DNA of 64,000 nucleotides from Candidatus Gottesmanbacteria bacterium RIFCSPHIGHO2_01_FULL_40_15 (GCA_001779115.1 MFJF01000015.1:22491-86490); one strand, 5' to 3'; positions 1 to 47,837 are shown, counted from the stretch's first letter. Made by a program: numbers and translations. Notes: generated by a model from the sequence alone, not told the origin.

Positions 1-1389
1 GAAGCAATATATATCCGATGGGCGCAGATAGGTTTGAATGACCCGGCTCACCGTTTTATTTCCCTGACCGACGGCAAACAGCCGCTTTTTACCTGGCTAA
101 TGTATCCGTTTCTTAGTATTTTTACTGATCCGCTTTTTGCCGGCCGGTTTGTTTCGGTTCTTTCCTCGATGCTCGCCGTTTCCGGAATTTACTTCCTGGC
201 CAAAGAATTATTTAACCGCAAAACAGCAGTATTTGCCTGTATTTTATATCTGATTTCACCCTTCGCCCTGCTCTATGACAGGCTGGCCCTAATGGACAGC
301 CTACTCTCGGCGCTTTTGGTTTGGTGCTTATATTTTACGGTTATGCTCACCAGATACAGCCGTCTCTATTTCAGTTTTATGCTGGGAATAACCGCCGGAT
401 TTGGACTCCTTACAAAATCATCAGCCGCTTTCGGTCTTTATCTTTTGCCATTCTCGCTTCTTCTTTTTAATTTTAGCGAAAAAAATAACTTAAATAAATT
501 ATTAAAATGGGCAGTTTTTTCTTTTTTGAGTATAATAATTGCTCAAATTATATATAATTTATTGAGATTATCGCCATATTTTTACATTATAGAACAAAAA
601 AATTATTCTTTCATCATGACGTTTGATGAATTTATAAAATCACCTTTGAGGATTTTTCTGCCTAATCTGAACGGTTTGACCGGATGGCTTTTTTCCTATT
701 TAACAATTCCTGTCGCTGTAATTACCATCATAAATCTGATTATTTCCATAATTAAAGTAAAAAGAATTATATTTTTACTATTTCTCTGGTTTATAATTCC
801 CTTTCTTGCTTTAGCGTTTTTGGGTAAAGTAATTTTCCCTCGTTTTATCCTGTTTATGACGATGCCCTTATTGATAATTGCGGCTGATTTTCTAAGCCGG
901 TTTTATTCATTCGCCAGGATTCGCATGAAATACGCTTATATAGTTATTTTGCTGATTTTAGCCCAATCGTTTTATATTTCACTTGTATTGATAGTAAAAC
1001 CGGTAAATGCCGATATACCGCTTAATGACAGAAACCAGTTCTTTGATGATTGGCCGTCGGGATTCGGAGTCAGGCAGGTAGTCGATTATATCGAAAACGA
1101 ATCCCGAAAAGGAAAAGTGGTATTGGGAACGGAGGGTACGTTCGGCCTGAATCCGGCCGCGTATGAAATATATCTCAAGTCCAATGACAACATCATTATA
1201 AAAGGATATTGGCCTGTAAAATCAGTGCCCGCTGAACTGAAAAACTATGCCCGCCTTTATCCTACATATCTTGTCTTTAAAGATACACAGGAATTTCCCG
1301 GTAACTGGCCTTTAAAACTGGTTGCCCGATACCGGCGCGGTTTAAAAAACACTTATTTGTATTTCTATCAGGTGATTCCTGAAGATTAA
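1..1389 (+). CDS. PMT_2/ArnT-like GT-C membrane glycosyltransferase, 5'-truncated (sixth B-family paralog). The frame is open to the window start; the ORF track begins at TTG 34.
   Basis: No stop in frame from nt 1. Polytopic hydrophobic protein whose TM-core and C-terminal region are collinear with the paralogs at 25085, 27551, 29205, 32797 and 34404. The N-terminal DE-loop is presumably upstream. Confidence 0.55.
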   Translation, partial: EAIYIRWAQIGLNDPAHRFISLTDGKQPLFTWLMYPFLSIFTDPLFAGRFVSVLSSMLAVSGIYFLAKELFNRKTAVFACILYLISPFALLYDRLALMDSLLSALLVWCLYFTVMLTRYSRLYFSFMLGITAGFGLLTKSSAAFGLYLLPFSLLLFNFSEKNNLNKLLKWAVFSFLSIIIAQIIYNLLRLSPYFYIIEQKNYSFIMTFDEFIKSPLRIFLPNLNGLTGWLFSYLTIPVAVITIINLIISIIKVKRIIFLLFLWFIIPFLALAFLGKVIFPRFILFMTMPLLIIAADFLSRFYSFARIRMKYAYIVILLILAQSFYISLVLIVKPVNADIPLNDRNQFFDDWPSGFGVRQVVDYIENESRKGKVVLGTEGTFGLNPAAYEIYLKSNDNIIIKGYWPVKSVPAELKNYARLYPTYLVFKDTQEFPGNWPLKLVARYRRGLKNTYLYFYQVIPED

Positions 1390-3038
1390 TGCGAAAATTA
1401 CCAGGTTTATATTTTTTTTTAACTCTGATTTTCCTGCTGATTATTTCTTTAGTTTATTCATGGCCTTTTTTCAAGCCGGGTCTGATTGTAACGGACGATG
1501 GTATTTGGTCGGTTGTGCGTCTTGCGGAAATGGTCAGAGAGTTAAAAGATTTCCAGATTCCTCCGCGCTGGGCCGGATACCTTAACCATGGATACGGTTA
1601 TCCTCTTTTTTCCTTTGCTTATCCCTTGCCTTATTATTTGGGTGCGTTTTTGAAATTTACGGGATTGTCCTATGTTTCTGCCGTAAAATTTTTATTTATC
1701 GGCAGCACGTTCCTTTCAGTGTTTTTCATGTATCTGTTGGGATCGACCTTAACCGGTCCCGGCGGAGGATTAACGGCAGCTCTTTTTTATTTGATAGCTC
1801 CTTACCGGTTAACCGATCTTTATGTCCGGGGTTCTTTAGGAGAATCAATCAGTTTCCTTTTTTTTCCGCTGATTTTTTACCTGACGGTTAAAATATTTAA
1901 AGAAAGTCCCGGTTTTAAGCCTATTTTTCTCAGTCTGTCCCTTTCCGCTTTGATGCTTTGCCATAATGTCATGGCTGTCCTTTTCATCCCTGTTTGGCTT
2001 TTTTTTGTATTTTTTCTTAATTTTTCCCGCTTCGGAAGGAAAGAAAATGATAAAAAGACATCACCGGTCATTAAATTTCTACCGGTGCAGTTTTTAAAGA
2101 TTTTATTTCTGTCACTCTCTTTGGCGGCATTTTTTATTCTTCCGGCTCTGATGGAAAAAAAATTCCTTGTACTGGATAAAATTCAGCTGGCCGCCAAAAG
2201 CCTCAATTTCATTTCACTCATCAATTTAGTCACCCGGCCGCAAAATACGGTCTATCCCTTTTTCAATTTGGGAATTCCGCAACTGACGGTTGCCGGTCTT
2301 TCTGTATTAGCGCTTTTCAGGATGAAAAAGGATCTTGATCACCGGAGCTTTATGATCTCTGTCCTGATAATTTTAGCCGCCCTTATTTTTCTCACCAATA
2401 ATATAAGTTCATTTTTCTGGCAGCTTCCGATTCTCAATTCAATTGATTTTCCCTGGCGGGTTATGGGTTTGGTCATTTTCATGTTGGCTTTATTAACCTC
2501 ATTTATCGGTTCAAACAGGAATTTATTGGCATTTGGTCTCCTTCTTGCCGGTATCGGCTTTTTCCGGAATCTTTCCCTTATTAATCCTGCCGGATACACT
2601 AAACAAAATGATGAATATTACCTGACTAACGATGCCACCACAACATCCAAAGACGAATTTATGCCTATTTGGGTGACTGATCCCCCAGGAAAAAGATTTT
2701 CGGAAAAAGTCTCATTACCGGAAAACGCTCTCATTTCCGATCTCGTCTACAATTCCAAAACAGTAAAATTTAACCTGCTGTCCCGACAGCCGGGTCGCCT
2801 GATAATAAATACAATTTACTTTCCCGGGTGGCAGGCCACTTTAAACGGAAAAAATACCGCAATTATATACAATAATCCCCAGGGACTGATCTCCCTGGAT
2901 TATCCTTCCGGGGCTTCACGGATTGAAGCGTTTTTTAAGGAAACCCCGTTAAGAAAGACAGCCGACGTCATAAGTTTGCTGGCCCTTATTTATATAATTT
3001 TCTCAATTATGAAAAGAGTTTTTAAATATGTCAGGTAA
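1389..3038 (+). CDS. YfhO-like GT-C family polytopic membrane protein (A-family paralog A1)
   Basis: N-terminal periplasmic-loop motif TDDGIW...RLAE...PPRWAGYLNHGYGYPLFSFAYPLPYYLG. More than 10 predicted TM segments. C-terminal soluble domain with YFPGWQATLNGK, as seen at the C-termini of YfhO-family proteins. The TAATG junction overlaps the previous gene. Confidence 0.6.
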   Translation: MRKLPGLYFFLTLIFLLIISLVYSWPFFKPGLIVTDDGIWSVVRLAEMVRELKDFQIPPRWAGYLNHGYGYPLFSFAYPLPYYLGAFLKFTGLSYVSAVKFLFIGSTFLSVFFMYLLGSTLTGPGGGLTAALFYLIAPYRLTDLYVRGSLGESISFLFFPLIFYLTVKIFKESPGFKPIFLSLSLSALMLCHNVMAVLFIPVWLFFVFFLNFSRFGRKENDKKTSPVIKFLPVQFLKILFLSLSLAAFFILPALMEKKFLVLDKIQLAAKSLNFISLINLVTRPQNTVYPFFNLGIPQLTVAGLSVLALFRMKKDLDHRSFMISVLIILAALIFLTNNISSFFWQLPILNSIDFPWRVMGLVIFMLALLTSFIGSNRNLLAFGLLLAGIGFFRNLSLINPAGYTKQNDEYYLTNDATTTSKDEFMPIWVTDPPGKRFSEKVSLPENALISDLVYNSKTVKFNLLSRQPGRLIINTIYFPGWQATLNGKNTAIIYNNPQGLISLDYPSGASRIEAFFKETPLRKTADVISLLALIYIIFSIMKRVFKYVR

Positions 3039-4749
3039 ACCGGTATCCATTCTGATGCTGATTACGGTATTGGTACTATCCTATTTTTCCGTCCGTCCGG
3101 TATTTATTAAAGGTTACTTTCCCGTGCATGACGATACTCAGCCGGCCAGGGTTTTAGTCATGTCGGAGCAGTTAAGAAAAGGCATCTTTCCTGTGAGGTT
3201 GGTTGACCGCCTCGGCTATGGATACGGTTATCCCTTATTTAATTTTTACGCACCGCTCCCGTATTATTTGGGCTCTTTATTTCATCTGGCCGGATTCTCT
3301 CTTATTTTTTCCGTAAAACTGATGTTTGCTTTTGGAGTGATATTGGCGGCAGTATTTATGTATCTTTTGGCGGTTGAAATCGCCGGGTCCTTCTTTGCTG
3401 CCGCAGCTGCCGTCTTTTATTTGTACGCTCCATACCATGCCGTCAATGTCTATGTCAGAGGTGCGGTCGGAGAGTACTATGCTTATGCATTCCTGCCGTT
3501 ATTGGGACTTGGAATATTGCGCGTAATAAAATCATCTGCCGGAAAATCCGACCACCGTATCCGTCCGGTGTTGCCACTGATACTTGGACTGGCCGGAATA
3601 CTGTTAAGTCATAATATTTTTGGTCTGGTTACTCTATATCTTTTGATCATTTTGATTCTGTATGGACTGTATCGCCAATTAAGAAAAAAAGGAGGCTGTC
3701 ATCTGATGCAAATTCTCATGAATATGGCTTTAGGAATCGGACTGTCCGCTTTTTTTATCCTGCCTGCTTTTTTGGAAAGCCACTTTACCCGTGTTGCCGG
3801 TCTTTCGGCGGGATCAAACAGTTACGATCTGCATTTTATCTCCTTGTTTCAGTTATGGGATTCTCCCTGGGGTTTCGGCGGTTCTGTTCCGGGCTTAAAC
3901 GACGGCATGTCTTTTAAGATCGGAAAACTGCACCTTTTAATAGCGGTTTTAGGGCTCATCCGTTTTATCTTTCTTGGTCCAAAAAACCCAAAATCAGCTG
4001 CTAAAAAATTTCTGGTTCCGGCTTCACTTTTTCTTTTTCTCCTTTCTGTCTTTTTTATGCTTCCCGTATCCTCTTTTTTGTATCGTTTGTTGCCGTATAT
4101 GAACTTTATCCAGTATCCGTGGCGTTTTTTGAATATCTCTCTTTTTGCCCTCAGCCTGGGTATAGCTCCGCTGTTTTATAATATGAAAAATAAATTTCAG
4201 GCAATATCTGCCTTTTTAATCATCTTCTCTATACAAGGCGTAAACCTGAAATATTTTAATCCGAGAACAGTTCATCCGTTTGATGAAGCCGATTATAAAA
4301 ATCCTGTTAATCTGAAGTTTACAATTTCCAGAATTTCTGACGAGTATTTGCCTCCCGGTATAAACATTCCCCAAACTGCCCGTGATCTTCCCGGTTCATC
4401 TCTGCCGGCAACTCCGGAAATGCCCGTTTATGAATTGACCGGTACGACCGTTTTTAAAAAATTCATGGTTGATAAAAAGGAAACGGGTCCGGTTGTCACC
4501 AAAATGGCATATTTCCCCGGTTGGCAGGCAAAAATTGACTCAAGTGCGGTAAGGGTTGTAAATAGAGAGGGTTTGATTGCTCTTCATGTTCCCGCCGGAA
4601 AGCATATTCTTGAATTGGAATTCAAAAATACGCCGGTAAGATTTACCGGTAACGCGATTTCCATTTCAAGTATTGTTCTGTTACTATATTTACTGTTGGT
4701 GCTGCCGATTAAATATATTTTATGCAAAGAGCCAGATCCGTCGAGGTAG
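3028..4749 (+). CDS. YfhO-like GT-C family polytopic membrane protein (A-family paralog A2)
   Basis: HDDTQP...RLGYGYGYPLFNFYAPLPYYLG motif, many TM segments, C-terminal YFPGWQAKIDSS domain. Paralogous to 1389..3038 and 39192..40847. Confidence 0.6.
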   Translation: MSGKPVSILMLITVLVLSYFSVRPVFIKGYFPVHDDTQPARVLVMSEQLRKGIFPVRLVDRLGYGYGYPLFNFYAPLPYYLGSLFHLAGFSLIFSVKLMFAFGVILAAVFMYLLAVEIAGSFFAAAAAVFYLYAPYHAVNVYVRGAVGEYYAYAFLPLLGLGILRVIKSSAGKSDHRIRPVLPLILGLAGILLSHNIFGLVTLYLLIILILYGLYRQLRKKGGCHLMQILMNMALGIGLSAFFILPAFLESHFTRVAGLSAGSNSYDLHFISLFQLWDSPWGFGGSVPGLNDGMSFKIGKLHLLIAVLGLIRFIFLGPKNPKSAAKKFLVPASLFLFLLSVFFMLPVSSFLYRLLPYMNFIQYPWRFLNISLFALSLGIAPLFYNMKNKFQAISAFLIIFSIQGVNLKYFNPRTVHPFDEADYKNPVNLKFTISRISDEYLPPGINIPQTARDLPGSSLPATPEMPVYELTGTTVFKKFMVDKKETGPVVTKMAYFPGWQAKIDSSAVRVVNREGLIALHVPAGKHILELEFKNTPVRFTGNAISISSIVLLLYLLLVLPIKYILCKEPDPSR

Positions 4750-5459
4750 TTATTCCTATCTATAATGAACAGGAGGAGCTTGCTGACAGTATTATCAAGC
4801 TCCGTTCGTTTTTAAAAAAGAATTTGAAAGACTTCAATTGGCATATTACCATTGCCGATAACGCTTCAACTGACGAAAGCCTTAATATTGCCAGAAAACT
4901 AAAATCCCGTTATACCGGTGTCGGTTTTATTCATCTGGATGAAAAAGGCCGGGGCCGGGCTGTTAAAAAAGCCTGGCAAACAAGCAGGGCTGATTTCTTA
5001 TCTTATATGGACGTAGATCTGTCTTCAGACCTCAGGTATTTCCGGACATTAATTACTGCACTGGTTGACGGATATGATATATCGATAGGCAACCGGCTTA
5101 TGAAAGGATCAATCGTTAAAAAACGCCCTTTGAAAAGGGAAGTTCTTTCAAGGGGATATAATATTCTGATAAAATTACTGTTTTTGGTTCATTTCAGTGA
5201 TGCACAATGCGGTTTTAAAGCTGTCAACCGGAAAGTAGCCGACCGCTTATTGCCGAATATTAAGGATAATGCCTGGTTTTTTGACAGTGAGCTCCTGATT
5301 ACCGGTGAAAAGGTCGGCTATAAAATATTCCAGGTACCGGTTTCCTGGACCGATAATCCCGGATCAACCGTCCGGGTTTTAAAAACAGTTTCGGGTGATT
5401 TGGCCGGTCTTTTACGGTTATTCCTGGATCGGCCTTGGCGCAAAATAAATAAAGTTTAA
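4722..5459 (+). CDS. GT2 polyprenyl-phosphate sugar synthase (Dpm1/GtrB/ArnC-like)
   Basis: VVIPIYNEQEEL...ADNASTDES...YMDVDLSSDL (GT-A DxD region). Size about 245 aa. Overlaps the end of A2. Confidence 0.7.
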   Translation: MQRARSVEVVIPIYNEQEELADSIIKLRSFLKKNLKDFNWHITIADNASTDESLNIARKLKSRYTGVGFIHLDEKGRGRAVKKAWQTSRADFLSYMDVDLSSDLRYFRTLITALVDGYDISIGNRLMKGSIVKKRPLKREVLSRGYNILIKLLFLVHFSDAQCGFKAVNRKVADRLLPNIKDNAWFFDSELLITGEKVGYKIFQVPVSWTDNPGSTVRVLKTVSGDLAGLLRLFLDRPWRKINKV

Positions 5460-6485: not shown

Positions 6486-7610
6486 ATGCCAAAATACAAC
6501 AACATTTTAGTCACCGGCGGAGCCGGTTTTATCGGTTCGCATTTGGTCGACGCTTTAATTACTAAAGGTTTTAAAGTCCGGGTTCTTGATAATCTCGATA
6601 AACAGATACACCCCTCTGGCAAGCTTCCTGCATACTTTAACAGGAAAGCTCAATTCATTAAAGGCGATGTAGTTAAAACTGAAGATTGGCGTAAAGCGTT
6701 AAACAAAATTGATTGTGTTTTTCATTTTGCTTCAGCTGTCGGCGTCGGCCAGAGTATGTATGAGATTGAAAAATACGTGCGCGTCAACTGTCTTGGGACG
6801 GCGCTTTTTCTTGACATGTTGGCCAATAAGAGTCACGGCGTTAGAAAAATTATTGTGGCCGCTTCCATGAGTTCTTACGGTGAAGGAAGCTACATTTGCA
6901 GTAAATGCGGTATTGTCAGACCGGATCTTCGTCCCCAATCTCAGCTGAAAAAAAGAGACTGGCAGGTATATTGTCCTGAATGTGGCATTTGGGTAACGCC
7001 TGTTCCGACAAAAGAAGAAGCCAAGCAGAATTCCAATTCTATTTATGCGATTACCAAAAAAAACCAGGAAGACATGATTCTGACAACCGGTAAAACTTAC
7101 GGTATTCCCTCTGTTGCCCTCCGTTTTTTTAATGTTTACGGTCCCAGACAATCACTTTCCAATCCCTATAACGGTGTGGCTGCCATATTCCTCAGCCGCA
7201 TCAAAAATAATAAACCGCCTGTAATAAATGAAGACGGTTTTCAGACCAGGGATTTTATCCATATTACTGATGTTGTTTCAGCCTGTATTGCCGCCATGGA
7301 AAAATCCTCAGGGGATTACGAAGTATTTAATGTAGGCAGCGGTAAACCTGTTACTATATTGGAAGTAGCCGGGGTTATAAGCAGATTATTAAAAAGTTCT
7401 ATTAAACCTGACATAACGGGTAAAGCAAGAAAACTTGATGTCCGTCATTGCTATGCCGATCTGAAAAAAATTAAAAAACTGCTCGGTTGGTCTCCCAAAA
7501 TTAAACTCTTGGAAGGATTTGCCGGACTGATTGAATGGGGTAAATATGAGAAAGCGCGGGATAAGGTGGATTATGCTCTTGGTGAATTGGAAAAAAGAGG
7601 ATTAAGATGA
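6486..7610 (+). CDS. NAD-dependent epimerase/dehydratase (SDR) with a Zn-ribbon insertion
   Basis: ILVTGGAGFIGSHLVD, and a catalytic Ser region (ASMSSYGEG) followed by a CSKCG...CPECG insertion before YAITK. Start taken at ATG 6486; the ORF track's TTG 6345 would overlap the upstream gene by 137 nt. Confidence 0.7.
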   Translation: MPKYNNILVTGGAGFIGSHLVDALITKGFKVRVLDNLDKQIHPSGKLPAYFNRKAQFIKGDVVKTEDWRKALNKIDCVFHFASAVGVGQSMYEIEKYVRVNCLGTALFLDMLANKSHGVRKIIVAASMSSYGEGSYICSKCGIVRPDLRPQSQLKKRDWQVYCPECGIWVTPVPTKEEAKQNSNSIYAITKKNQEDMILTTGKTYGIPSVALRFFNVYGPRQSLSNPYNGVAAIFLSRIKNNKPPVINEDGFQTRDFIHITDVVSACIAAMEKSSGDYEVFNVGSGKPVTILEVAGVISRLLKSSIKPDITGKARKLDVRHCYADLKKIKKLLGWSPKIKLLEGFAGLIEWGKYEKARDKVDYALGELEKRGLR

Positions 7611-8350
7611 CAGTTTCATTCATAATTCCCTTCCATAATGAAGGAAAAAACTGCCAACCGATGGTAGAACGTGTAGCGGCTTTTGCTGAAAAAAATGATA
7701 TTGATTATGAAATAATTCCGGTGGATGACAGAAGTAATGATAAAACACGGCAAATCCTTAAGAATTTATGCGCGAAAAACAGGCGAATAAAACCCGTTAT
7801 ACGAAAAGAGGACAGCGTGGAAAAGGGAAATACTATGGGCAGTGCCCTTATGGAAGGAACGGTAAAATCAATCGGCCGTTTTATAATTTGGACTATGGGC
7901 GATATGGCCGACAATACTGCAACTTATAAAGATATACTGGATAAACTTAACGGCAATTATGATATGGTTTTTGGTTCCCGTTATATGCCCGGCGGTTCAC
8001 GGGGTAATCTTGATCCTTTGAAAGCGACTTTAAGCTCAACAGGCACTTTCCTGGCCCGGATTCTGTTTGGAATTCCCGTTCATGATATAACTAATGCCTT
8101 CCGGGGTTTTAAAAAAGAAGTATTTCAGAAAGTAAGCCTGGAAGAGACCGGATTCGGCATTTCACCTGAATTTGCCATTAAAGCCCATATGGCCGGATTT
8201 AAGCTCGGGGAAGTTCCGACAACATACGCCAACAGGGTTGAAGGAATCTCCAATTTTAAACTATATAAAATGACCAGGGGATACCTTTTATTATACTTCA
8301 AACTCCTTCTAAAATACCGGCTTCACAAAAAAAAGCTGGTCCTTCACTGA
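7607..8350 (+). CDS. GT2 polyprenyl-phosphate sugar synthase (Dpm1/GtrB-like)
   Basis: SFIIPFHNEG...IPVDDRSNDKT and a C-terminal RVEGISNFK motif typical of Dpm1/GtrB enzymes. ATGA overlap with the upstream gene. Confidence 0.7.
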   Translation: MTVSFIIPFHNEGKNCQPMVERVAAFAEKNDIDYEIIPVDDRSNDKTRQILKNLCAKNRRIKPVIRKEDSVEKGNTMGSALMEGTVKSIGRFIIWTMGDMADNTATYKDILDKLNGNYDMVFGSRYMPGGSRGNLDPLKATLSSTGTFLARILFGIPVHDITNAFRGFKKEVFQKVSLEETGFGISPEFAIKAHMAGFKLGEVPTTYANRVEGISNFKLYKMTRGYLLLYFKLLLKYRLHKKKLVLH

Positions 8351-11384: not shown

Positions 11385-12529
11385 AGAAAACTATTGTAGT
11401 ACTAGCAATTGTTATTACTTCGCTGCATTTAATAAATTTCTGGCATATAAATCTGGAAAGGTTAAAAAGACCCTTTGATCCGGATTACTTTTCCGGACTT
11501 TATTCAACTTCCCAATATGTTTTGGGAGAAAAATCAAAAGGAGGTATCGGTGATGACGGACTTTATGCTTTTGCCGGCTATTATTACTTTTTCCAACAGG
11601 GAGATGTCAGTGCGGTAAACTTTGAACACCCGCCTTTGGGGAAATATCTAATTGGACTTTCAATTTTTCTTTTTAACAACGAAATTATAATCGGAATTAT
11701 ATATTTTATTTTTCTTCTTATCACGGTTTATAAATTAAGCGGTTTACTGATAAGTGATAAATATCTTTCCCTTCTTCCCCCGATTCTGATTTCATGGGAT
11801 CCGCTCTTTCTCGATCACACAATAAGATCCCAGCTTGACCTTCCCTTCTCGTTGTTTTTCGTCACGGCTGTTTATTTTTTTCTTCTGATTTTTAAAAATA
11901 ATACCGGTATATATCTTTCCCAATTATTTTGGGCCTTGGCGTTTAGCGTCCGTTTTTTCCCGTTTCTTATTATTTTGGAAATTTATATGGCAATTATTAC
12001 ATTTTTTGTCGGCCGCAGGTTTTTACTCCGGTTTCTTCTGTCGTCACTTTTAACTCCGGTTATATACCTTGTAACCCATACCGTTTTTTTTATTTACCAT
12101 CCGTCACTGGTGGAATTTCTCAGGCATAAAAAATGGATGCTCGCCTGGTTTACCGGAACTCCGGTTAAATTCGGCAATATCTTAAGAAACATTTTTACCG
12201 GAAGGCTTCTTGATACGCTTGATAATTCGGTTGTCAATAACCTGTGGACTCCGATGCAGCCGGTAATTTTAGTTTTGGCACTGCTTTGTCCGTGTCAATT
12301 TCATCGGCGGAATAATTCAATTAGCGTAAAATTTTCCCCGTATTTTGTTCTATTAGGTTTTGTAATCTTATATTTCCTTTATACCGTAATTTTAACCGGC
12401 GGCCAGGCGAAATTTATCATGCCTGTATTTCCGCTGATGGCGGTTCTGGCGGTAAAGAATGCGGCAGATCTCTATAGTATAATACTGCCATGGATCAGGG
12501 CGCGCTTGAGGCATTCAAAAACAAAGTAG
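11381..12529 (+). CDS. short PMT-like (GT39-type) GT-C mannosyltransferase homologue
   Basis: The loop after TM1 reads DDGLYAFAGYYYFFQQGDVSAVNFEHPPLGKYLIGL, which resembles the PMT loop-1 DE...HPPLGKLL signature. Many TM segments, 382 aa, no MIR domain. Confidence 0.55.
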   Translation: MKKTIVVLAIVITSLHLINFWHINLERLKRPFDPDYFSGLYSTSQYVLGEKSKGGIGDDGLYAFAGYYYFFQQGDVSAVNFEHPPLGKYLIGLSIFLFNNEIIIGIIYFIFLLITVYKLSGLLISDKYLSLLPPILISWDPLFLDHTIRSQLDLPFSLFFVTAVYFFLLIFKNNTGIYLSQLFWALAFSVRFFPFLIILEIYMAIITFFVGRRFLLRFLLSSLLTPVIYLVTHTVFFIYHPSLVEFLRHKKWMLAWFTGTPVKFGNILRNIFTGRLLDTLDNSVVNNLWTPMQPVILVLALLCPCQFHRRNNSISVKFSPYFVLLGFVILYFLYTVILTGGQAKFIMPVFPLMAVLAVKNAADLYSIILPWIRARLRHSKTK

Positions 12530-13935
12530 TCGGCGGCGTTTTGGCCTTAACTACACGGACTTTCATCCTCCAGATAATATCATTTACTGCTACTTTTATT
12601 CTGACCATATTGCTGTCTCCTGAAATATTCGGGATTTTTTTTGTTGTTTCAGCCGTAATTTCCTTTCTTACCTATTTTTCCGATATCGGACTGGCAGCGG
12701 CTCTTATACAGAAAAAGGATGAGCCTGTCAGAAGCGAACTGGTGTCCGTTTTTACTTTACAGCAGGTGATAGTAACCCTAGTAGTCGCAGTCTCTTTTTT
12801 AAATGTTTCGCTAATTTCCCGTTTTTATAAATTATCCGGGGATGGTACTTTTCTTTTCCAGGCTCTTTTAGTTTCTTTTTTTCTTTCTTCTTTAAAGACC
12901 ATACCCTCAATTCTTCTGGAACGTAAACTGGATTTTTCCCTTTTGGTAGTCCCTCAGATTCTTGAAAATCTGGCTTTTTACCTAACGGCCGTAATTCTGG
13001 CGCTTTTGAATTTGGGTATTGCCAGTTTCGCCTGGGCAGCTTTGATCAGAGGCATTGTCGGTTTGATTGCCATTTATTCAGTTTCTCCATGGGTTCCGGG
13101 TCTTGGTTTTTCCTATTCCTCGGTGAGACACCTGATTACTTTTGGAATTCCTTTCCAGGCTAATTCTCTTCTGGCACTCGTTAAGGATGATCTTCTTACA
13201 TTATATTTGGGCAAAATACTGCCTTTTTCCTTTATCGGCTATCTTGGCTGGGCAAAAAAATGGGCTGAAATTCCTCTCAGGCTTATTATGGACAGTGCCG
13301 TCAGGGTCACTTTCCCGGCCTTTTCAAGAATCCAAAAAGAAACCGCCTTATTGAAAAAAGCCATTGACAAAACCGTATTTTTTCTGGCGCTTTTGATTCT
13401 GCCGGTATCGGTTCTTTTGATTGTCTATATTAAACCGGCCATCGGAATAATTCCTAAATATCAGAAATGGGAGCCGGCTTTACCGGCTTTTTATCTTTTT
13501 TCACTTTCTGCTGTCCTGGCGTCCTTTTCCAGTCCGATTGTTAACGCGCTTAATGCTTTGGGGAAAATTAGAAAAACCTTAGGTCTGATGTTACTCTGGA
13601 CTGTAATGACCTGGATGCTGGTACCGGTTCTGACAAATCTTATCGGCTATAACGGTTGGCCGATTTCAGCCCTTCTTATTTCCTCCACTCTATTCCTGCC
13701 TGTGTCAATGTTAAAAAAGTATGTCAGTTTTGATTTTTGGAAAAATCTGAAAACCCCCCTGGTCTTAACTTTGGTAATGTTCCTGTTTTCGTTTATGACA
13801 ATGTCTTTTGTATATAATATTTATACTCTGGTTGCTTTAATTTCTGCCTCCCTCCTTTTATACTTGCTTTTATGTTTTTATTTTCTTAAAAAAGACATCT
13901 TGCCTTTTCTTCCGGAGTTTCTAAAACGTGTTTGA
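12490..13935 (+). CDS. Wzx-like polysaccharide/oligosaccharide flippase (MOP/PST family)
   Basis: 481 aa with about 12-14 TM segments. The N-terminus (KNKVVGGVLALTTRTFILQIISFTATFILTILLSPEIFGIFFVVSAV) is typical of PST-family flippases. Confidence 0.7.
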   Translation: MDQGALEAFKNKVVGGVLALTTRTFILQIISFTATFILTILLSPEIFGIFFVVSAVISFLTYFSDIGLAAALIQKKDEPVRSELVSVFTLQQVIVTLVVAVSFLNVSLISRFYKLSGDGTFLFQALLVSFFLSSLKTIPSILLERKLDFSLLVVPQILENLAFYLTAVILALLNLGIASFAWAALIRGIVGLIAIYSVSPWVPGLGFSYSSVRHLITFGIPFQANSLLALVKDDLLTLYLGKILPFSFIGYLGWAKKWAEIPLRLIMDSAVRVTFPAFSRIQKETALLKKAIDKTVFFLALLILPVSVLLIVYIKPAIGIIPKYQKWEPALPAFYLFSLSAVLASFSSPIVNALNALGKIRKTLGLMLLWTVMTWMLVPVLTNLIGYNGWPISALLISSTLFLPVSMLKKYVSFDFWKNLKTPLVLTLVMFLFSFMTMSFVYNIYTLVALISASLLLYLLLCFYFLKKDILPFLPEFLKRV

Positions 13936-18248: not shown

Positions 18249-19312
18249 AAAAAAAGAAGATTCTGCTTTATAGTCCTTATCTGTCCACTCTGGGAGGCGG
18301 GGAAAGATATTTGTTCCAAATAGCCGCAGCTTTACAGAATGATCACCGGGTTACTTTGGCGGCGGATCCGGACATTAAAAAAAAAGCCGATAAATTTTTT
18401 TCCATTGATCTTAATAAAACGGAGATTATCCCGGTTAAATTATTCGTCAGCCAAAAGTTTATCTCCCGTTATTTTTTTACCAAACTTTACGACCTGGTTT
18501 TTTATGTCACTGACGGCAGTCTGATTTTTCCTTCAGCCAAAAAAAATTATCTCATTATCCAGTCACCAAATCATATCCCCCCCGATACTTTTCCCGTTAA
18601 ACTGAAACTGCCCGGTTGGAAGATTGTCTGTTACTCGGCTTTCATGAAAAATATCATATCCGGAAGGATTAACCGGAAGGCATATGTCCTTCCTCCGGCA
18701 GTTGATACCGTTCTTTTCAGTCAGGGGAACCGGAAAAAAGAAAAAATCATTCTTACTGTGGGTCGGATTTTTACCTCAGCCCTCCATGAAAAAAGACAGG
18801 ATTTCCTTATAAGTTTTTTCAAAAAAAATTACCGGAAACATTTTTCCGGTTGGCGGTTTATTATTTGCGGAAATGTAACGGAAGAGAGCGGCCAGAAAAC
18901 TTTTGAAAAAATGCAAATAAACATGAAAGGCGCGCCTGTTGAACTGCATAAAAATCTGCCTTTTTCCCGGCTTCTGACATTCTACCGCAAAGCAGCTGTT
19001 TATTGGCATGCCGCCGGATACGGTTCAGATGAAGAAACCAATCCTGAAAAAATGGAGCATTTCGGCATAACGACAATTGAGGCGATGGCGGCCGGTGCCG
19101 TACCGGTGGTATATGGAGCCGGAGGCCAAACGGAAATAATTGAAAATGGAAAATCAGGTTTTCTTTTTAAAGACGAGAGAATTTTTTTAAAGAGAAATAT
19201 TGAAATAATCACCAATCAAAATCTTTTAGACAAATTAAAAACCGGCGCCGTTAAAAAAGCAGCTGTCTACTCATTTGCCAATTTCCGTAAAAAAGTAAAT
19301 GAACTTATATAA
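18245..19312 (+). CDS. GT4 (GT-B) glycosyltransferase
   Basis: C-terminal EAMAAGAVPVVYGAGGQTEIIENGKSGFLF is a GT4 donor-binding motif. ATG 18245 is preferred over the ORF-track start at 18209. Confidence 0.7.
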   Translation: MKKKKILLYSPYLSTLGGGERYLFQIAAALQNDHRVTLAADPDIKKKADKFFSIDLNKTEIIPVKLFVSQKFISRYFFTKLYDLVFYVTDGSLIFPSAKKNYLIIQSPNHIPPDTFPVKLKLPGWKIVCYSAFMKNIISGRINRKAYVLPPAVDTVLFSQGNRKKEKIILTVGRIFTSALHEKRQDFLISFFKKNYRKHFSGWRFIICGNVTEESGQKTFEKMQINMKGAPVELHKNLPFSRLLTFYRKAAVYWHAAGYGSDEETNPEKMEHFGITTIEAMAAGAVPVVYGAGGQTEIIENGKSGFLFKDERIFLKRNIEIITNQNLLDKLKTGAVKKAAVYSFANFRKKVNELI

Positions 19313-21590
19313 AAAACACTTTTTCTTAATTCTTTTCTGTACGGTTGTTACGTTTTTTTATTTCCCCTTTTTTCTGTACGGTAAATTACCGGTAGCCGCC
19401 GACACCATCGTCGGAATGTATCACCCTTTCAGGGACAATATTTGGGACGGATTCAGAGCCGGTGTTCCTTTTAAAAATTACCTGATTACCGATCCGGTCA
19501 GACAGCAATATGTTTGGAGGGAATTGGCTGTAGACCAGATGAAAAAAGGTCAGCTTCCGGTCTGGAATCCTTATTCCTTTTCGGGAACGCCTCTTCTTGC
19601 CAATATTCAGGCTTCGGCTTTTTACCCCCTGAATATTCTCTTTTTTTTCCTGCCGTTTTCATTAGCCTGGTCCTGGCAGATAATTATCTCTGCGTTTTTG
19701 GCCGGAATTTTTATGTATTTATATCTAAGAAACAAAAATATTAGTCCTCCGGCTTCATTTATCGGAGCAATATCTTTCAGTTTTTCAGGCTTTGCTGTTT
19801 CCTGGCTCACCTGGAATACCATACTGCATACGGCCGCATTTCTTCCTTTATCTCTTTTTACCGCTGATAATATTTTTCTTCGTACCCGCCCCTTAAAACT
19901 CCACTTGGCGGTGTTTATTCTATCGCTTGTTTTCGCGTTTCTAGCCGGCCATCTGCAGATATTTTTTTACTCAATGATTTTAATCATCGCCAATATCCTT
20001 TTCAATCTCCGGACTCTTAAAAAAAATAAATTTTCTTATTTATTGTTATTTGGATTGAGTTTTCTGATTTTTATTCTTATCACTCTGCCTCAATCAATCC
20101 CCTTATTCCGTCTGATTTTTGAAAGTGCCCGGGATATTGATCAGGGCGTTTGGAGAAAAGTTGGCTGGTTTATTCCTTGGCAGAATTTAGTCCAGTTTCT
20201 GGTGCCTGATTTCTTCGGAAATCCGGCAACCGGTAATTATTTCGGTATTTGGAATTATATGGAATTTGTGGGGTATATAGGCGTAATCCCGCTGTTATTA
20301 TCCCTTTTTTCACTGGTTTTTATCCGCTCGCAATTAACTCTTTTTTTCGGCTCGGTTCTTATCATTTCCCTGCTGTTTGCATTCCCGACGCCTGTCGCCA
20401 GGCTTGTGTATATCTTCAATATTCCTCTAATTTCAACCGCCCAACCGACCCGGTTATTGTTCCTGGTTGATTTTTCACTGTCGGTTCTTGCCGCATATGG
20501 CCTTAACAGCCTGAAAGACTTTAAAAAATTCCGGAAAATGACAATAATTGCATTAATAATCTTTTTTGTATTTATTATATTATGGCTGTTGGTGTCTCTT
20601 CCTTTTGCCGAACCGCTTTTTTTCGATGAAGGTTTACGCTCAATCAGCCGCAGAAATCTGATCCTGCCCGGATTTATTTTTACGGCCGGCGCTCTTTCCC
20701 TGATGGGCTTTATAAAAAAACAATACAAGGCATCCCGGAAAATATTTATATTTGTTATTTTACTTTTAACAGTTGCCGATCTTATGAGATTTGCCTGGAA
20801 ATTTACACCCTTCAGCAACAGGAATTGGCTTTATCCCCAAACAAAAATTACCGATATTTTAAAAAGAGATACGTCCAAATGGCGTTTTATGTCCCTTGAC
20901 AGAAGAATAATGCCCCCTAATTTTTCAATCGCTTACAGGTTTGAAGACGCCGGTGGATATGATCCCTTATATCTCAAGGATTATAATCTGCTGGTATCTT
21001 CATGGAATCAGGGAAAAAGTGCGGTAGAAGCTTCCCCCTTTAACCGTATTGTCACTCCGCAAATTTCTGACAGTATTATTACCGATATTTTAAACGTCAA
21101 ATACCTTCTTTCGTACGGACCCTTATCATCAACAAAATTGAACTTAACGGCCGCCGAAGGAATGACCTATCTGTATGAGAATAAAAATGTTTTTCCAAGA
21201 GCCTGGCTGACCCCGTTTCTTATAAAAGTAAGTAATCAGGCACAGGTATTGGAAAAAATTTTTGAACTTAAAGATTTCCTGAAAACAATAACCGTCACAT
21301 CAGAGGCTGTTGATTTTAAAAATACCATCAATGCGCTTCCGGCTGTTATTCCCCCGGGCAATTCACCAAAAGACCGGGCAGACCTGGTGCTATGGAGCGA
21401 AAACAGCATCACTGTCAGGACATTTAGCGAAAAAACTCAAATTCTGGTGCTGTCGGAAATATATCATCCCTCCTGGAAAGTTAAAATTAACGGGAAAAAG
21501 GGTAAAATTTATAAAGTAAATTATCTTCTCCGCGGTATCCCTTTGGAAGAGGGTGAAAACCTGGTAGAGATGTCAGCCACCGTTTTTTGA
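19299..21590 (+). CDS. YfhO-family GT-C membrane glycosyltransferase
   Basis: 763 aa. N-terminal loop QLPVWNPYSFSGTPLLANIQASAFYP matches the YfhO signature. Many TM segments. C-terminal domain ends KVNYLLRGIPLEEGENLVEM. Confidence 0.7.
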   Translation: MNLYKKHFFLILFCTVVTFFYFPFFLYGKLPVAADTIVGMYHPFRDNIWDGFRAGVPFKNYLITDPVRQQYVWRELAVDQMKKGQLPVWNPYSFSGTPLLANIQASAFYPLNILFFFLPFSLAWSWQIIISAFLAGIFMYLYLRNKNISPPASFIGAISFSFSGFAVSWLTWNTILHTAAFLPLSLFTADNIFLRTRPLKLHLAVFILSLVFAFLAGHLQIFFYSMILIIANILFNLRTLKKNKFSYLLLFGLSFLIFILITLPQSIPLFRLIFESARDIDQGVWRKVGWFIPWQNLVQFLVPDFFGNPATGNYFGIWNYMEFVGYIGVIPLLLSLFSLVFIRSQLTLFFGSVLIISLLFAFPTPVARLVYIFNIPLISTAQPTRLLFLVDFSLSVLAAYGLNSLKDFKKFRKMTIIALIIFFVFIILWLLVSLPFAEPLFFDEGLRSISRRNLILPGFIFTAGALSLMGFIKKQYKASRKIFIFVILLLTVADLMRFAWKFTPFSNRNWLYPQTKITDILKRDTSKWRFMSLDRRIMPPNFSIAYRFEDAGGYDPLYLKDYNLLVSSWNQGKSAVEASPFNRIVTPQISDSIITDILNVKYLLSYGPLSSTKLNLTAAEGMTYLYENKNVFPRAWLTPFLIKVSNQAQVLEKIFELKDFLKTITVTSEAVDFKNTINALPAVIPPGNSPKDRADLVLWSENSITVRTFSEKTQILVLSEIYHPSWKVKINGKKGKIYKVNYLLRGIPLEEGENLVEMSATVF

Positions 21591-25084: not shown

Positions 25085-26758
25085 ATGAAAAAGACATTGG
25101 TGCTTTTGGGCGCCGTGACAATCCTGGCTGCTGTTTTAAGATTATACCGGCTGGGTTCAACGCCCATTTCCCTTGAGTGGGATGAAGTAGCCATCGGATA
25201 TGATGCTTATTCCCTAATAAAAACCGGCCGTGATCAGTTTGGGGATTTACTTCCTGTCACTTTCCGTTCACTGGATGATTACAAGCCTCCTATTTATGAA
25301 TATCTTACCGTTATTCCGGTTTCCGTTTTCGGATTAACCGGTTTTGCCGTCAGATTACCCTCTGCTTTGTCCGGTATCGGTATGGTTTTTCTTCTTTATT
25401 TTTTTGCCGGTATTTTATTTCAAAATATTTTTTTATTGAAAAATTACAAAAATAAAGCCGCTCTGCTGGCTTCTTTTTTATTGGCTGTTTCTCCCTGGCA
25501 TATTCAGTTTTCAAGGGCTGCCTTTGAAGTTAATGTGGCAGCTTTAATAACTGTTTCAGCGGTCTTTTTGTTCCTTAAAGGGCTCAAAAACCCCCGTTAT
25601 TTCATATATTCGGCAGGTCTTTTCGGGCTTGATTTATTTTCTTATCATTCTGCACGAGTTGTCGCGCCTCTTTTATTAATCTTCCTTTTTGTGATTTTTA
25701 ATAAATCCTTGCCCGGCAAAAAGCCGGTAATTTATTTTATGGTAATTTTTGGAGTTTTCCTTCTGGCTGTTCTGCCGGTCTTATTTTCCCAAAACGCCCA
25801 AATCAGATTTACGGCAACCAATATTTTCCGTCCGGCTGCCCGTTATCTGGATGAAAAAGACCTGGATAAGATTTTTCTTGAACAGAGATTGAACGATATA
25901 TTCAAGGGATATGAATTTAGCGGTAAAATTTTTCACAACCGCCGGTTAGTCTGGTTTGATTATGACACGCTTAAAAAAGCTTTTAATAATTATCTATCCA
26001 ATTACCGGTTTGAATATCTGTTTATCAAAGGAGATGCACCGCTCCATCATGCGCCCGGTTTTGGCTTATTTCATATGTGGGAGTTGCCGTATCTTGCCGC
26101 CGGGATAATCTTTTTACTGTTTAAAGGTTTAAACCGTTACAGCCTTTTTCTGCTTTTTTGGCTTTTAATTGCTCCTTTGCCCAATGCCGTCACCAGGGAA
26201 GCTCCTCACTCCGTCAGAACACTTCTGTTGCTTCCGGTCTATCAGCTGTTGGGGGCAGCCGGTCTGATTTATCTCTATAATTTGGCAAAAGAAAACTTTT
26301 GGGTTCTCTTTCTGCCGGTCACCATAATTACTTTTCTGTTTATAATAAATCACGGCTATTATCTGCATCAGTATTTCATCCATACCGATTTTGATGTTGC
26401 CGCAAACTGGAAATACGGCCGGAAACAGGCGGTAAATATTACTGAAAAAATAAAAATCAATTATGACCGGGTTCTGGTGTCTCTGTCTCTTGAGATGCCG
26501 CATGTTTTTTGGCTGTTTTACAGCCGGTTTCCTCCCGACCGGTATCTGGTAAACGGCGGGACAGTTTCGGGAGGTTATGCTGATGAGAGGAACTCTTTTG
26601 ATAAATATCAGTTTCGTAATTTTGATTATAAACTGTTAAAGGGTCAGGGAAACCTGCTGTTGGTCGGTACACCCGGTGATTTTCCGGCCGGAGCCGATAT
26701 TTTTGTAAACATTTATAACCCCGACGGTTCAGTTGCTCTGCAGATGGCCCGAAACTGA
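25085..26758 (+). CDS. PMT_2/ArnT-like GT-C membrane glycosyltransferase (B-family paralog B1)
   Basis: N-terminal signature LRLYRLGSTPISLEWDEVAIGYDAYSLIKTGRDQFGDLLPVTFRSLDDYKPP. Polytopic, with a C-terminal soluble domain. Confidence 0.65.
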   Translation: MKKTLVLLGAVTILAAVLRLYRLGSTPISLEWDEVAIGYDAYSLIKTGRDQFGDLLPVTFRSLDDYKPPIYEYLTVIPVSVFGLTGFAVRLPSALSGIGMVFLLYFFAGILFQNIFLLKNYKNKAALLASFLLAVSPWHIQFSRAAFEVNVAALITVSAVFLFLKGLKNPRYFIYSAGLFGLDLFSYHSARVVAPLLLIFLFVIFNKSLPGKKPVIYFMVIFGVFLLAVLPVLFSQNAQIRFTATNIFRPAARYLDEKDLDKIFLEQRLNDIFKGYEFSGKIFHNRRLVWFDYDTLKKAFNNYLSNYRFEYLFIKGDAPLHHAPGFGLFHMWELPYLAAGIIFLLFKGLNRYSLFLLFWLLIAPLPNAVTREAPHSVRTLLLLPVYQLLGAAGLIYLYNLAKENFWVLFLPVTIITFLFIINHGYYLHQYFIHTDFDVAANWKYGRKQAVNITEKIKINYDRVLVSLSLEMPHVFWLFYSRFPPDRYLVNGGTVSGGYADERNSFDKYQFRNFDYKLLKGQGNLLLVGTPGDFPAGADIFVNIYNPDGSVALQMARN

Positions 26759-26765
26759 TAATTTT

Positions 26766-27554
26766 ATGTCCGTCTTTCTGCTTTTAACTTTAATAAGCAT
26801 ATTTAATATCATTATCAGATTTTTTAACTCCTCCGCCCGGTTTAATTCTTCTCTTACCGCATTTGTCCCCGTTGTTTTATATTTTTATCTGGCTAATTAT
26901 TTTAAAAGAAAAAAAATTGCCCTTATCAGTTCATTTATTTTCAGCCTTTTACCGCAAACAGTGGCTTTAGGCCGGATCGCCTCTCCCGTAAATTTCCAGG
27001 TATTTCTGTTTTTGCTATTCCTGATATGTTTTTCCTATATCAGAAAAATATCTGTCCGGATCGGGCTTTTTTTTCTGTGGTTTTACATATCTTTTTTGAC
27101 CTTCAGGGGTTTTTGGTTTTATCACTCCTATCCCCAAAATTCTGTGTATAAATTGATGGAAAATATTTTCAATCTGACTTCTTTTAACCTTCTCTTTTTC
27201 AACAACGTGACATACTACTGGGGTGGCGTCAGGGAAAACGGTATATTGTATATTGCCCTGTTGCCTTTTTTTTTGATCGGGCTTTTTACCCTTATCCGGT
27301 CAAAAACTACAAACATCATAAGCGTCACGGCAGTCATATTCATTTTAACGGTCATGTCACCGTCATACCCTGAATCCAAGGAAATTTTCATGGCTTTTCC
27401 CATGCTGTCGGCCGTTACCGGCCGGGGTTTTTATGAATTATGGCACCGGAATAATTTGTTAAACCGGTTATTTACAGGGTTTTTGATTTTATTTCTTATT
27501 TATGAAACAGCCCAGTTTTTGCATTATTACTTTATTCATTTTCCCCTGGAATGA
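26766..27554 (+). CDS. polytopic membrane protein of unknown function. The ORF-track start is TTG 26733.
   Basis: About 260 aa and 6-8 hydrophobic segments, between paralogs B1 and B2. No recognisable motif. Confidence 0.4.
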   Translation: MSVFLLLTLISIFNIIIRFFNSSARFNSSLTAFVPVVLYFYLANYFKRKKIALISSFIFSLLPQTVALGRIASPVNFQVFLFLLFLICFSYIRKISVRIGLFFLWFYISFLTFRGFWFYHSYPQNSVYKLMENIFNLTSFNLLFFNNVTYYWGGVRENGILYIALLPFFLIGLFTLIRSKTTNIISVTAVIFILTVMSPSYPESKEIFMAFPMLSAVTGRGFYELWHRNNLLNRLFTGFLILFLIYETAQFLHYYFIHFPLE

Positions 27555-29200: not shown

Positions 29201-29204
29201 AAAA

Positions 29205-35999: not shown

Positions 36000-36024
36000 A
36001 ATAAAGCATGCTAAAATACCGGAT

Positions 36025-44536: not shown

Positions 44537-44893
44537 ATGCCGTTCACATTTACCCAAATTTTTTTAAGCCTGTTTTTATTATTCGCCATCAGCCGGGTAG
44601 TTATCCGTTTCCGGGAAGGCATACTGCCTTTGTTGGGATTTGCTTTTTGGCTGGCGGTTTTCGGCTTTGCCATTGTTATCGTTCTGTTTCCCGGATTAAC
44701 CAGCGTATTGGCCACTGTTGTGGGGATCGGCAGGGGAGCCGATTTTGTGATATATGTATCAGTCAGTCTTATTTTTTTCCTTATTTTCAGACTGTATATC
44801 TATTTGGAGGATATCAGGCATGATATTACCGAAATTATCACGCATTTGGCTCTAGAGAATAAAAAACGGAAAAATGCCCGGAAAACTTCCTAA
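44537..44893 (+). CDS. small 3-4-TM membrane protein (DUF2304-like partner of Dpm1-type GT2)
   Basis: 118 aa and hydrophobic, immediately after the GT2. GT2 plus a small membrane protein is a common arrangement. Confidence 0.4.
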   Translation: MPFTFTQIFLSLFLLFAISRVVIRFREGILPLLGFAFWLAVFGFAIVIVLFPGLTSVLATVVGIGRGADFVIYVSVSLIFFLIFRLYIYLEDIRHDITEIITHLALENKKRKNARKTS

Positions 44894-47822: not shown

Positions 47823-47837
47823 AATTTTTTTAATTTT

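Follow-up and report, generated by a model that had tools for sequence, protein, structure and literature searches.

The locus and its genes

The stretch of DNA analysed here, hereafter the window, comprises 64,000 nt, read on one strand, of a Candidatus Gottesmanbacteria genome, a member of the Microgenomates within the candidate phyla radiation (CPR), and carries a large glycan locus in which genes for GT2 glycosyltransferases resembling the synthase Dpm1 occur together with many genes for membrane glycosyltransferases of the GT-C type. Identical DNA occurs in contigs of Candidatus Gottesmanbacteria bacterium RIFCSPHIGHO2_02_FULL_40_24 and of closely related organisms. Of the roughly 55 genes of the window nearly all lie on the plus strand, and all but a few serve glycan synthesis; 16 are GT-C-like and five encode Dpm1-like GT2s, named in the following, as are the other genes, by their first coordinate (4722, 7607, 38410, 43852 and, on the minus strand, 47838). 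The supercluster measures at least 70 kb, reaching 5 kb or more beyond the 5' end of the window and also past its 3' end, and the contig in total holds at least seven predicted synthases of lipid-linked sugars and some 19 GT-C-like genes (the 16 of the window and three just upstream).

A sequence-only reading of this DNA had proposed six GT2s of this class, two of them physically paired with GT-C paralogs (A2 and A3) in three-component glycosylation modules. Five such GT2s were found. The two gene pairs on which that proposal centred were confirmed as open reading frames (ORFs): GT2 4722 overlaps the end of A2 by 28 nt, and GT2 38410 lies immediately upstream of A3 with a gap of 8 nt. The position formerly given for a further GT2, 43851, is out of frame, the true ATG lying at 43852 and opening a protein of 227 aa. 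The start codon of 4722 is supported by its orthologs, since these share the N-terminus MxKKxSVEIVIPIYNE.

Predicted class of the five GT2s

All five GT2s matched PF00535 (E 1e-15 to 5e-26), are 227-257 aa long and show 0 predicted transmembrane (TM) segments. A profile built from the orthologs of 4722 only recovered the other four over most of their length at 39-59 bits (7607 over positions 6-235; 47838 at 46.7 bits), and with the same profile the six other GT2s of the window (15670, 16572, 17481, 21587, 40840 and 44874) either reached at most 21 bits, at the N-terminus only, or were unmatched. When single sequences were searched against the PDB, the best match was 5MLZ, the dolichyl-phosphate-mannose synthase of P. 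furiosus (PfDPMS), with E values of 1.2e-17, 6.4e-6 (38410) and 2.4e-10 (43852). The assignment to the monosaccharide polyprenyl-phosphate transferases, which had been proposed beforehand, was borne out by a profile of the five GT2s and the 4722 orthologs, for which 5MLZ (E 7e-42) was followed by ArnC (1e-22) and GtrB (3e-20); the match to 5MLZ covered positions 4-239, that is 236 of 245, and reached past the GT-A core. It was borne out by fold as well: the AlphaFold 2 (AF2) model of 4722 has a mean predicted local distance difference test (pLDDT) of 93.8, its Foldseek ranks 1-21 were exclusively ArnC, PfDPMS and GtrB, and it superposes on PfDPMS with a TM-score of 0.79 and a root-mean-square deviation of 2.6 A.

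The residues concerned with the acceptor agree with this class. In PfDPMS the phosphate of dolichyl phosphate (Dol-P) is bound by R117, R131 and S135 (Gandini et al., PMC5526996), with which R125, R139 and S143 of GT2 4722 align; in all five GT2s these columns hold an invariant R, then R or K, then S or N (S being replaced by N in three), and the metal-binding Asp (D91 in PfDPMS) is invariant as well. Helices 137-154 and 217-236 of the 4722 model take the positions of the interface helices IFH1 and IFH2, after which the model stops, and in all five GT2s these helices are amphipathic (best 11-residue hydrophobic moment 0.4-0.76). PfDPMS without its TM domain retained membrane targeting and activity (PMC5526996), which makes a TM-less synthase of 227-257 aa plausible. 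Fold and class are established for GT2 4722, and the other four were classed by profile and residue alignment; by these criteria the five are predicted polyprenyl-phosphate glycosyltransferases. Their best matches among the NCBIfam models were AglJ, Dol-P-hexose transferase, PpgS, PgfS and ArnC, AglJ being the top match for four of the five; below cut-off, 7607 matched AglJ and the Dol-P-hexose transferase, and 38410 matched AglJ and PpgS. No equivalog can be assigned, because the scores lie far below the curated cut-offs.

The GT-C paralogs

The 16 GT-C-like genes of the window are 34, A1, A2, A3, 9882, 11381, 19299, 25085, 27551, 29205, 32797, 34392, 26733, 42690, 49549 and 61729. A1, A2 and A3 are 28-31% identical in pairs over their full length and have some 9-12 TM segments. 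Their earlier description as GT-C proteins was upheld by the AF2 model of A2, which is confident (pLDDT 88.8, predicted TM-score 0.92) and whose top 23 Foldseek matches in the PDB were all GT-C enzymes (AglB, DPY19, STT3, PglB, AftA, ArnT, AftD, AftB, Pmt4 and ALG9). Only this fold comparison connected A2 with solved structures; PDB sequence searches with A2 alone and with the A-family profile found no solved relative, and A2 itself had no Pfam match. The C-terminal part of A2 consists of a beta-sandwich (467-532) and the last TM helix. Directly after TM1 the A family carries the motif FPMHDDTQPARV (H34-D35 in A2); of 43 sequences, A1, A2 and A3 among them, all have D35 and nearly all have H34. 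This acidic motif appears to stand where GT-C enzymes carry their catalytic acid, on what would be the extracytoplasmic side.

Within the family, 35 of 43 members matched Pfam PF10131 (PTPS_related) and 11 of 43 matched YfhO; A1 scored 13 bits against PF10131, and A3 scored 28.0 bits against YfhO, whose gathering score is 28.5. Profile-profile comparison with hhalign related the A2 family to the YfhO family of gene 19299 at 98.6% (0.1% for a Wzx negative control), and A3 to the A1 and A2 families at 100% and to YfhO at 94.9%. PF10131 belongs to the Pfam GT-C clan CL0111 and has no known function (PMC7801869). On its model, A2 is best described as a protein of confident GT-C fold from an uncharacterised PF10131/YfhO-like family.

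The remaining GT-C-like genes are mostly of PMT_2 type. The PMT_2/PMT paralogs of the tandem array share 27-38% pairwise identity, and 9882 and 11381 aligned with the array's PMT_2 family B at 96.6% (E 5e-10) and 97.0% (E 1e-10), the Wzx control giving 0.2%. Pfam searches at E up to 1 returned nothing for 22414-22611, 9882, 11381, 13928, 26733 and 30830; local profile-profile comparison placed 9882, 11381, 26733 and 49549 in GT-C families and left 30830 and 13928 unplaced. The 273-aa product of 26733-27554 is a truncated array paralog (98.0% against family B, columns 87-437 of the 557-aa PMT_2 paralogs) which lacks the N-terminal loop bearing the GT-C catalytic acid and may be decayed or regulatory. 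Also inside the array lies 30830-32800, encoding 656 aa with about 16 hydrophobic segments, for which profile-profile comparison gave no relation to the GT-C or Wzx families of the window. The protein of 49549-51453 aligned with the PMT_2 family of ORF 34 at 95.4% (E 2e-8, 385 columns); its own family is rare, with 10 proteins at E <=0.001 among 1.84 billion cluster representatives, five of them strong (E <=1e-30, 49549 itself counted).

Conservation of the pairing across genomes

In the window alone only three of the five GT2s directly touch a GT-C-like gene and, as about 16 of the 55 genes are GT-C-like, this adjacency is not beyond chance. The significance of the pairing comes from its conservation across genomes. 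At least 575 genomes encode a relative, and the comparison was made with the 80 best-matching species-level genomes (Gottesman-, Levy-, Roizman- and Shapirobacteria), 78 of which have room downstream of the A2 ortholog. A Dpm1-like GT2 lies directly 3' of that ortholog in 71 of these 78 loci, always overlapping it or separated by at most 2 nt, so that the physical GT2/GT-C pairing put forward by the sequence-only reading is evolutionarily conserved. Directly upstream of A2 stands another A-family paralog in 78/80 loci (best matched by A1, once by A3), and the gene following the GT2 is the Wzx gene in 59 of the 71 genomes, with overlapping ORFs in 14 loci inspected. The core order, seen in most of the 80 Microgenomates loci, is GT-C, GT-C, GT2, Wzx, GT2, GT2, GT2; a YfhO gene comes after it in most of the loci that extend far enough, a GT4 gene sitting between in the window.

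The other modules are also retained elsewhere. In other genomes GT2 7607 travels with 5462, 6345 and 9882, and also with 11381 in those loci where that gene can be seen. Of seven contexts of the A3 ortholog, five have a GT2 as its immediate upstream neighbour and four show the order epimerase, flavoenzyme, GT2, A3; two loci (L091 and L092) preserve PIG-V-like, GT2 and DUF2304 genes in that order. PF04188 (E at most 1e-5, an unmarked match) was found at the position equivalent to 42690 in L091-L093. On the contig, all seven Dpm1-like GT2s lie at most two genes from a GT-C-like gene. Many of the fetched relatives (L009, L012, L022 and others) were deposited as 'uncultured Gammaproteobacteria'; their gene order and sequences match Microgenomates, and the label looks like a mistake. 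In the literature this locus was not found described for CPR, Patescibacteria, Microgenomates or Gottesmanbacteria, coverage being incomplete and the result weak evidence of novelty.

The third component

Two small ORFs had been suggested as GtrA-like flippases, and neither kept that role. The product of 44537-44893 belongs to DUF2304 (PF10066, E 3.9e-19), a family of GT2 activators, and 22414-22611 encodes 65 aa with two TM helices and no family match; tblastn found no homolog of either in the fetched loci L001-L090. Proteins of the GacJ/Rv3632 (DUF2304) family bind and stimulate their GT2 (10.1101/180810; PMC10821137), and by analogy 44537-44893 would be a partner or activator of GT2 43852 rather than a flippase. 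The sole GtrA-type domain is fused to a GT2 some 3.6 kb upstream of the window. By conserved position, the third partner is likely to be the Wzx-type protein 12490-13935 and not GtrA.

A mutase-like module

Module 2 (35983, 36957, 38410 and 39192) includes a gene similar to UDP-galactopyranose mutase (UGM). The top 20 PDB matches of 36957-38432 were all UGM, with a full-length alignment to the T. cruzi enzyme (4dsg) and with the motifs YTEKLWGRS and GRNGIFRYNNMDHS in common; among NCBIfam models it exceeded the cut-off of PRK07208.1-4 ('hypothetical protein'; 439.8 bits, cut-off 389). The GalE-like gene 35983 is conserved upstream, and the module order is kept in other Gottesmanbacteria. The presence of a UGM-like gene suggests, from homology, a lipid-linked furanose donor. 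Known lipid-pentofuranose routes, those of decaprenyl-P-arabinose and Und-P-ribofuranose, are based on phosphoribosyl pyrophosphate (PRPP). That module 2 as a whole is a production line for a polyprenyl-phosphate-linked hexofuranose, e.g. galactofuranose, is a speculative proposal and on balance an unlikely one; a literature search of incomplete coverage found no precedent for a lipid-linked galactofuranose donor. If true, it would mean extracytoplasmic furanosylation by a non-PRPP route with a new type of donor, and it would give the PF10131 GT-C family its first function. In the whole locus, module 2 included, the NCBIfam matches of the short-chain dehydrogenases/reductases (SDRs) and of the aminotransferase are below cut-offs and name no sugar.

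Other features of the locus

The coordinates are collected in Table 1.

Table 1. Genes of the glycan locus discussed in the text, with the evidence for each assignment
Feature	Position	Strand	Basis
GT-C, PMT_2 type	34..1389	+	PF13231 E 2.4e-17
GT-C paralog A1, PF10131/YfhO-like	1389..3038	+	full-length identity to A2, A3
GT-C paralog A2, 573 aa	3028..4749	+	AF2 model, Foldseek, family Pfam matches
Predicted TM-less polyprenyl-phosphate GT2, module 1, 245 aa	4722..5459	+	PF00535 E 2.7e-22; 5MLZ E 1.2e-17
Two SDR nucleotide-sugar dehydratase/epimerase genes	5462-6481, 6486-7610	+	Pfam Epimerase, GDP_Man_Dehyd
Predicted TM-less polyprenyl-phosphate GT2, module with 9882 and 11381	7607..8350	+	58.8 bits vs 4722-ortholog profile
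GT-C-like membrane proteins	9882-11384 (12 TM), 11381-12529 (8 TM)	+	hhalign to PMT_2 family B
Wzx-type (MOP) flippase	12490..13935	+	PF13440 E 2.3e-46
YfhO-family GT-C closing the conserved core	19299..21590	+	PF09586 E 2.5e-16; position conserved across loci
Five PMT_2/PMT GT-C paralogs in tandem array (25085, 27551, 29205, 32797, 34392)	25085..35999	+	Pfam
GalE-like SDR epimerase, module 2	35983..36951	+	NCBIfam galE 169.9 bits, below cut-off 262
UGM-like flavoenzyme, module 2	36957..38432	+	PDB matches, PRK07208.1-4
Predicted TM-less polyprenyl-phosphate GT2, module 2	38410..39183	+	5MLZ best PDB match; 59.3 bits vs 4722-ortholog profile
GT-C paralog A3, PF10131/YfhO-like, module 2	39192..40847	+	hhalign
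PIG-V-like (Mannosyl_trans2) GT-C candidate, module 3	42690..43829	+	PF04188 22.1 bits, just under gathering score 22.4
Predicted GacI/PpgS-like TM-less polyprenyl-phosphate GT2, full DxDxQ	43852..44535	+	PpgS 139.8 bits; 5MLZ E 2.4e-10
DUF2304 small membrane protein (GacJ/WpsB/Rv3632 family)	44537..44893	+	PF10066 E 3.9e-19
Arn-like operon: SDR 48500-49501, predicted TM-less polyprenyl-phosphate GT2 47838-48527, DegT-type aminotransferase 46641-47822	46641..49501	-	Pfam, NCBIfam
Rare GT-C-like membrane protein, divergent from Arn-like operon	49549..51453	+	hhalign
PMT_2 GT-C, open at window 3' end, >=757 aa	61729..64000	+	PF13231 27.9 bits, gathering score 26.1

The first gene of the window starts 86 nt before it and encodes 491 aa in L001 (5193-6668), a record reaching further upstream on the same contig. 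There, L001 580-5173 holds two further Dpm1-like GT2s (113.5 and 64.6 bits against the 4722-ortholog profile): one carries the GtrA_DPMS_TM domain mentioned above, with a PMT_2 GT-C as the next gene, and the other has no TM segment and precedes a GT-C of the MptA_B family. The two SDRs after GT2 4722 have dTDP-glucose 4,6-dehydratase and GalE as best NCBIfam matches, both below cut-off, and the domain of the second is interrupted by some 40 inserted residues with a weak zinc-ribbon match (long-ORF residues 178-203). A tRNA-guanine transglycosylase gene (TGT; 8360-9526, minus strand) interrupts the glycan cluster and occupies the same place in L007, L008, L011, L013, L016, L017 and L021, from other Gottesmanbacteria. 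Directly after the Wzx gene, 13928-15673 encodes 581 aa comprising a single TM segment at the N-terminus and a large domain that matches no family; in those fetched loci that reach far enough, no homolog was recovered between Wzx and the GT2 that comes next, and L001 and L007 have a similar-sized gene there. Towards the 3' end, 53576-61753 contains two methyltransferases, an AsnB-type amidotransferase, an ATP-grasp ligase, a GFO/IDH oxidoreductase and a HAD hydrolase, tailoring genes which suggest amidated or methylated sugars. The low-GC tail, 61754-64000, was considered as non-coding DNA and this was rejected: an ORF runs past the window end, and Rfam, tRNA and tandem-repeat scans were empty.

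Proposed mechanism and alternative explanations

Taken together, these data make it fairly probable, in our judgement, that the GT2s make lipid-phosphate sugars, that the Wzx-type protein flips them and that the GT-C enzymes transfer the sugars outside the cell membrane. Each GT2, peripheral and TM-less, would take a single sugar from a nucleotide sugar and attach it to polyprenyl phosphate on the cytoplasmic side, being held on the membrane by its two amphipathic interface helices and, in one case, also by a DUF2304 (GacJ-type) partner. The lipid-phosphate sugar would most likely cross the membrane through 12490-13935, the GtrA-type TM domain of the upstream fused GT2 being a possible flippase, perhaps for that enzyme's own product. 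On the outer side A1, A2, A3, the PMT_2-type paralogs and the PIG-V-like protein would use these donors to add sugars to a glycan or protein of the cell surface. GT-C genes outnumber the synthases by about 3:1, and therefore one donor probably feeds several transferases. We infer the lipid-phosphate-sugar product, the flipping by Wzx, the use of the donors by neighbouring GT-Cs, the identity of the sugars and the acceptors.

Several observations weigh against this scheme. The DxDxQ metal/diphosphate motif, proposed as a hallmark of the class (PMC10821137), is complete only in 43852 (DADGQ); the corresponding residues are HPDYQ in 38410, DVDLS in 4722, SPDGN in 47838 and MGDMA in 7607, so that the second Asp is invariant and both the first Asp and the Gln are absent from 7607 and 47838. 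This variation may reflect different donors. Every NCBIfam match of the GT2s is far under the curated equivalog cut-off (43852 scores 139.8 bits with PpgS, against 370), and the similarity of A2 to the solved GT-C structures is only moderate, with TM-scores of about 0.3-0.45 at Foldseek probabilities of 0.77-1.00. No ORF scanned in the window matched PF04138 (GtrA), and a DUF2304 partner accompanies 43852, the other four GT2s having none. In this genome an insert of 7 kb (two SDRs, GT2 7607, TGT, a cupin, and the GT-C-like 9882 and 11381) separates GT2 4722 from Wzx 12490. Finally, three soluble GT2s follow Wzx in most genomes, and for this reason the flipping of an oligosaccharide fits at least as well as that of a lipid-phosphate monosaccharide.

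This last point leads to a different scheme, applicable at least to the core around 4722, in which the polyprenyl-monophosphate sugar is a primer elongated before export: 15670, 16572 and 17481 (GT2) and 18209 (GT4) would elongate it, Wzx would flip the product, and A1, A2 and YfhO 19299 would polymerise it and/or transfer it en bloc. AglJ puts the first sugar on Dol-P, and haloarchaeal N-glycosylation initiated by AglJ resembles such a scheme; AglJ is the best NCBIfam match of four GT2s, although its scores are far below cut-off. The conserved gene order parallels the wps locus, in which WpsA/WpsB, homologs of GacI/GacJ, have been shown to synthesise GlcNAc-P-C55, which subsequently undergoes elongation (PMC10821137). 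Moreover, no initiator of the PF00953 or PF02397 type was present among the scanned ORFs of the window or the listed genes of the 5 kb upstream, although a phosphoglycosyltransferase initiator could lie elsewhere in the genome. Nevertheless, four of the five GT2s have no WpsB/GacJ partner, and modules 2 and 3 and the Arn-like operon resemble single-sugar donor lines made up of sugar-nucleotide enzymes, a GT2 and a GT-C. Elongation before export and donor supply to the GT-Cs share every tested feature, so that the tests made here do not separate them; we regard elongation before export as a serious but rather doubtful possibility.

Two further explanations question the class of the GT2s itself. 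They could be ordinary cytoplasmic transferases acting on a lipid-linked glycan or on a soluble acceptor (GpgS-like, for instance), their adjacency to GT-C genes arising from the shared locus. GT-A folds of GT2 type are widespread, glucosyl-3-phosphoglycerate synthases and WrtF appear in the Foldseek list from rank 22 with TM-scores of 0.6-0.7, DxDxQ is incomplete in four of the five, and adjacency within the window is statistically not unusual. That the 21 better ranks belong to three solved polyprenyl-phosphate glycosyltransferase families, that the PfDPMS profile match includes interface helices and acceptor-phosphate ligands, that the six other GT2s of the window score far lower or not at all with the same profile, and that 71/78 genomes keep the GT-C, GT2 and Wzx genes in the same tight, overlapping arrangement make this explanation quite improbable. 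Processive membrane polymerases of the cellulose, chitin or hyaluronan synthase kind, the outcome which the sequence-only reading had named as contradicting its proposal and which the data did not bear out, share with the five proteins no more than GT2 family membership, chondroitin and heparosan synthases matching over the first ~100-120 residues only. With no TM helix in 227-257 aa, no significant match to Pfam Glyco_trans_2_3 or Glyco_tranf_2_3, and neither sequence nor fold searches yielding a cellulose, chitin or hyaluronan synthase, such an activity is hardly conceivable.

Significance

CPR genomes measure only about 1 Mb, and the cell surfaces of these bacteria are almost unstudied. Here some 70 kb of such a genome is devoted to a single glycan locus. 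A broader, speculative and on balance unlikely reading is that Microgenomates assemble most of their surface glycans on lipid carriers linked through a monophosphate, as archaea and eukaryotes do. The conservation of the locus gives PF10131 a concrete, testable role, namely that of a user of polyprenyl-phosphate-linked sugar donors. Furthermore, the locus shows that Dpm1-like synthases commonly have neither a TM anchor nor a DUF2304 partner, and it points to Wzx rather than GtrA as the linked flippase.

Comparison with known systems

Human DPM1 also lacks a TM domain, as do the window GT2s. PfDPMS is their closest solved relative by sequence and by fold, but it carries a four-helix GtrA-like TM domain, whereas the window proteins stop after IFH2. 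The equivalents of its K178 and R202 differ, as do those of D89 and Q93 in most of the GT2s, and the donor is therefore likely to differ from GDP-Man in its sugar or its nucleotide.

CsbB has C-terminal TM helices. The analogy with GtrA/B/C, CsbB/YfhO and ArnC/ArnT, drawn in the sequence-only reading, stands as regards the logic of a GT2 lipid-phosphate-sugar synthase combined with a GT-C enzyme (PMC11127046), and the A family is itself related to YfhO; it does not extend to the architecture of the synthases, for GtrB and ArnC end in TM helices and the five window GT2s have none. Unlike the Gtr systems, the window has no GtrA gene among the scanned ORFs, and a Wzx-type protein occupies the conserved adjacent place. 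The minus-strand SDR, GT2 and DegT aminotransferase beside the GT-C-like 49549 resemble the arn genes.

As the five GT2s have no TM anchors, GacI, WpsA and PpgS are the better analogs. GT2 43852 has PpgS as best NCBIfam match and is followed by a DUF2304 gene, with a GT-C gene adjacent, as in the PpgS/Rv3632/Rv3779 system of M. tuberculosis (polyprenyl-P-GalNAc; galactosamine of arabinogalactan), but its score does not approach the PpgS equivalog cut-off and the adjoining GT-C is PIG-V-like and presumably no homolog of Rv3779. The pellicle glycan of Lactococcus is assembled on a monophosphate lipid through WpsA/WpsB (PMC10821137), and the Wps system (WpsC-F, the Wzx-like WpsG and the GT-Cs WpsH/WpsJ) shares with the present core a GT2 synthase, Wzx, soluble glycosyltransferases and GT-Cs, as well as a locus without phosphoglycosyltransferase among the ORFs scanned; it differs in gene order and in the WpsB-type partner, of which there is none beside 4722.

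The precedent for the whole arrangement is provided by GacI, GacJ, the Wzx-like GacK and the GT-C enzyme GacL (10.1101/180810). As in GacIJKL, a TM-less GT2 synthase, a Wzx-like proposed flippase and transfer outside the membrane by a GT-C are predicted here, and at 43852/44537 a DUF2304 activator adjoins the GT2. The present locus departs from it in that four GT2s have no such partner, that the GT-C partners are PF10131/YfhO-like, PMT_2 and PIG-V-like, that the core holds two tandem GT-C paralogs per GT2, and that the host is a CPR bacterium. The locus is an expected extension of the known three-component logic of GacIJKL- and Wps-like systems, in which the expansion and the conservation within the CPR are the notable features.

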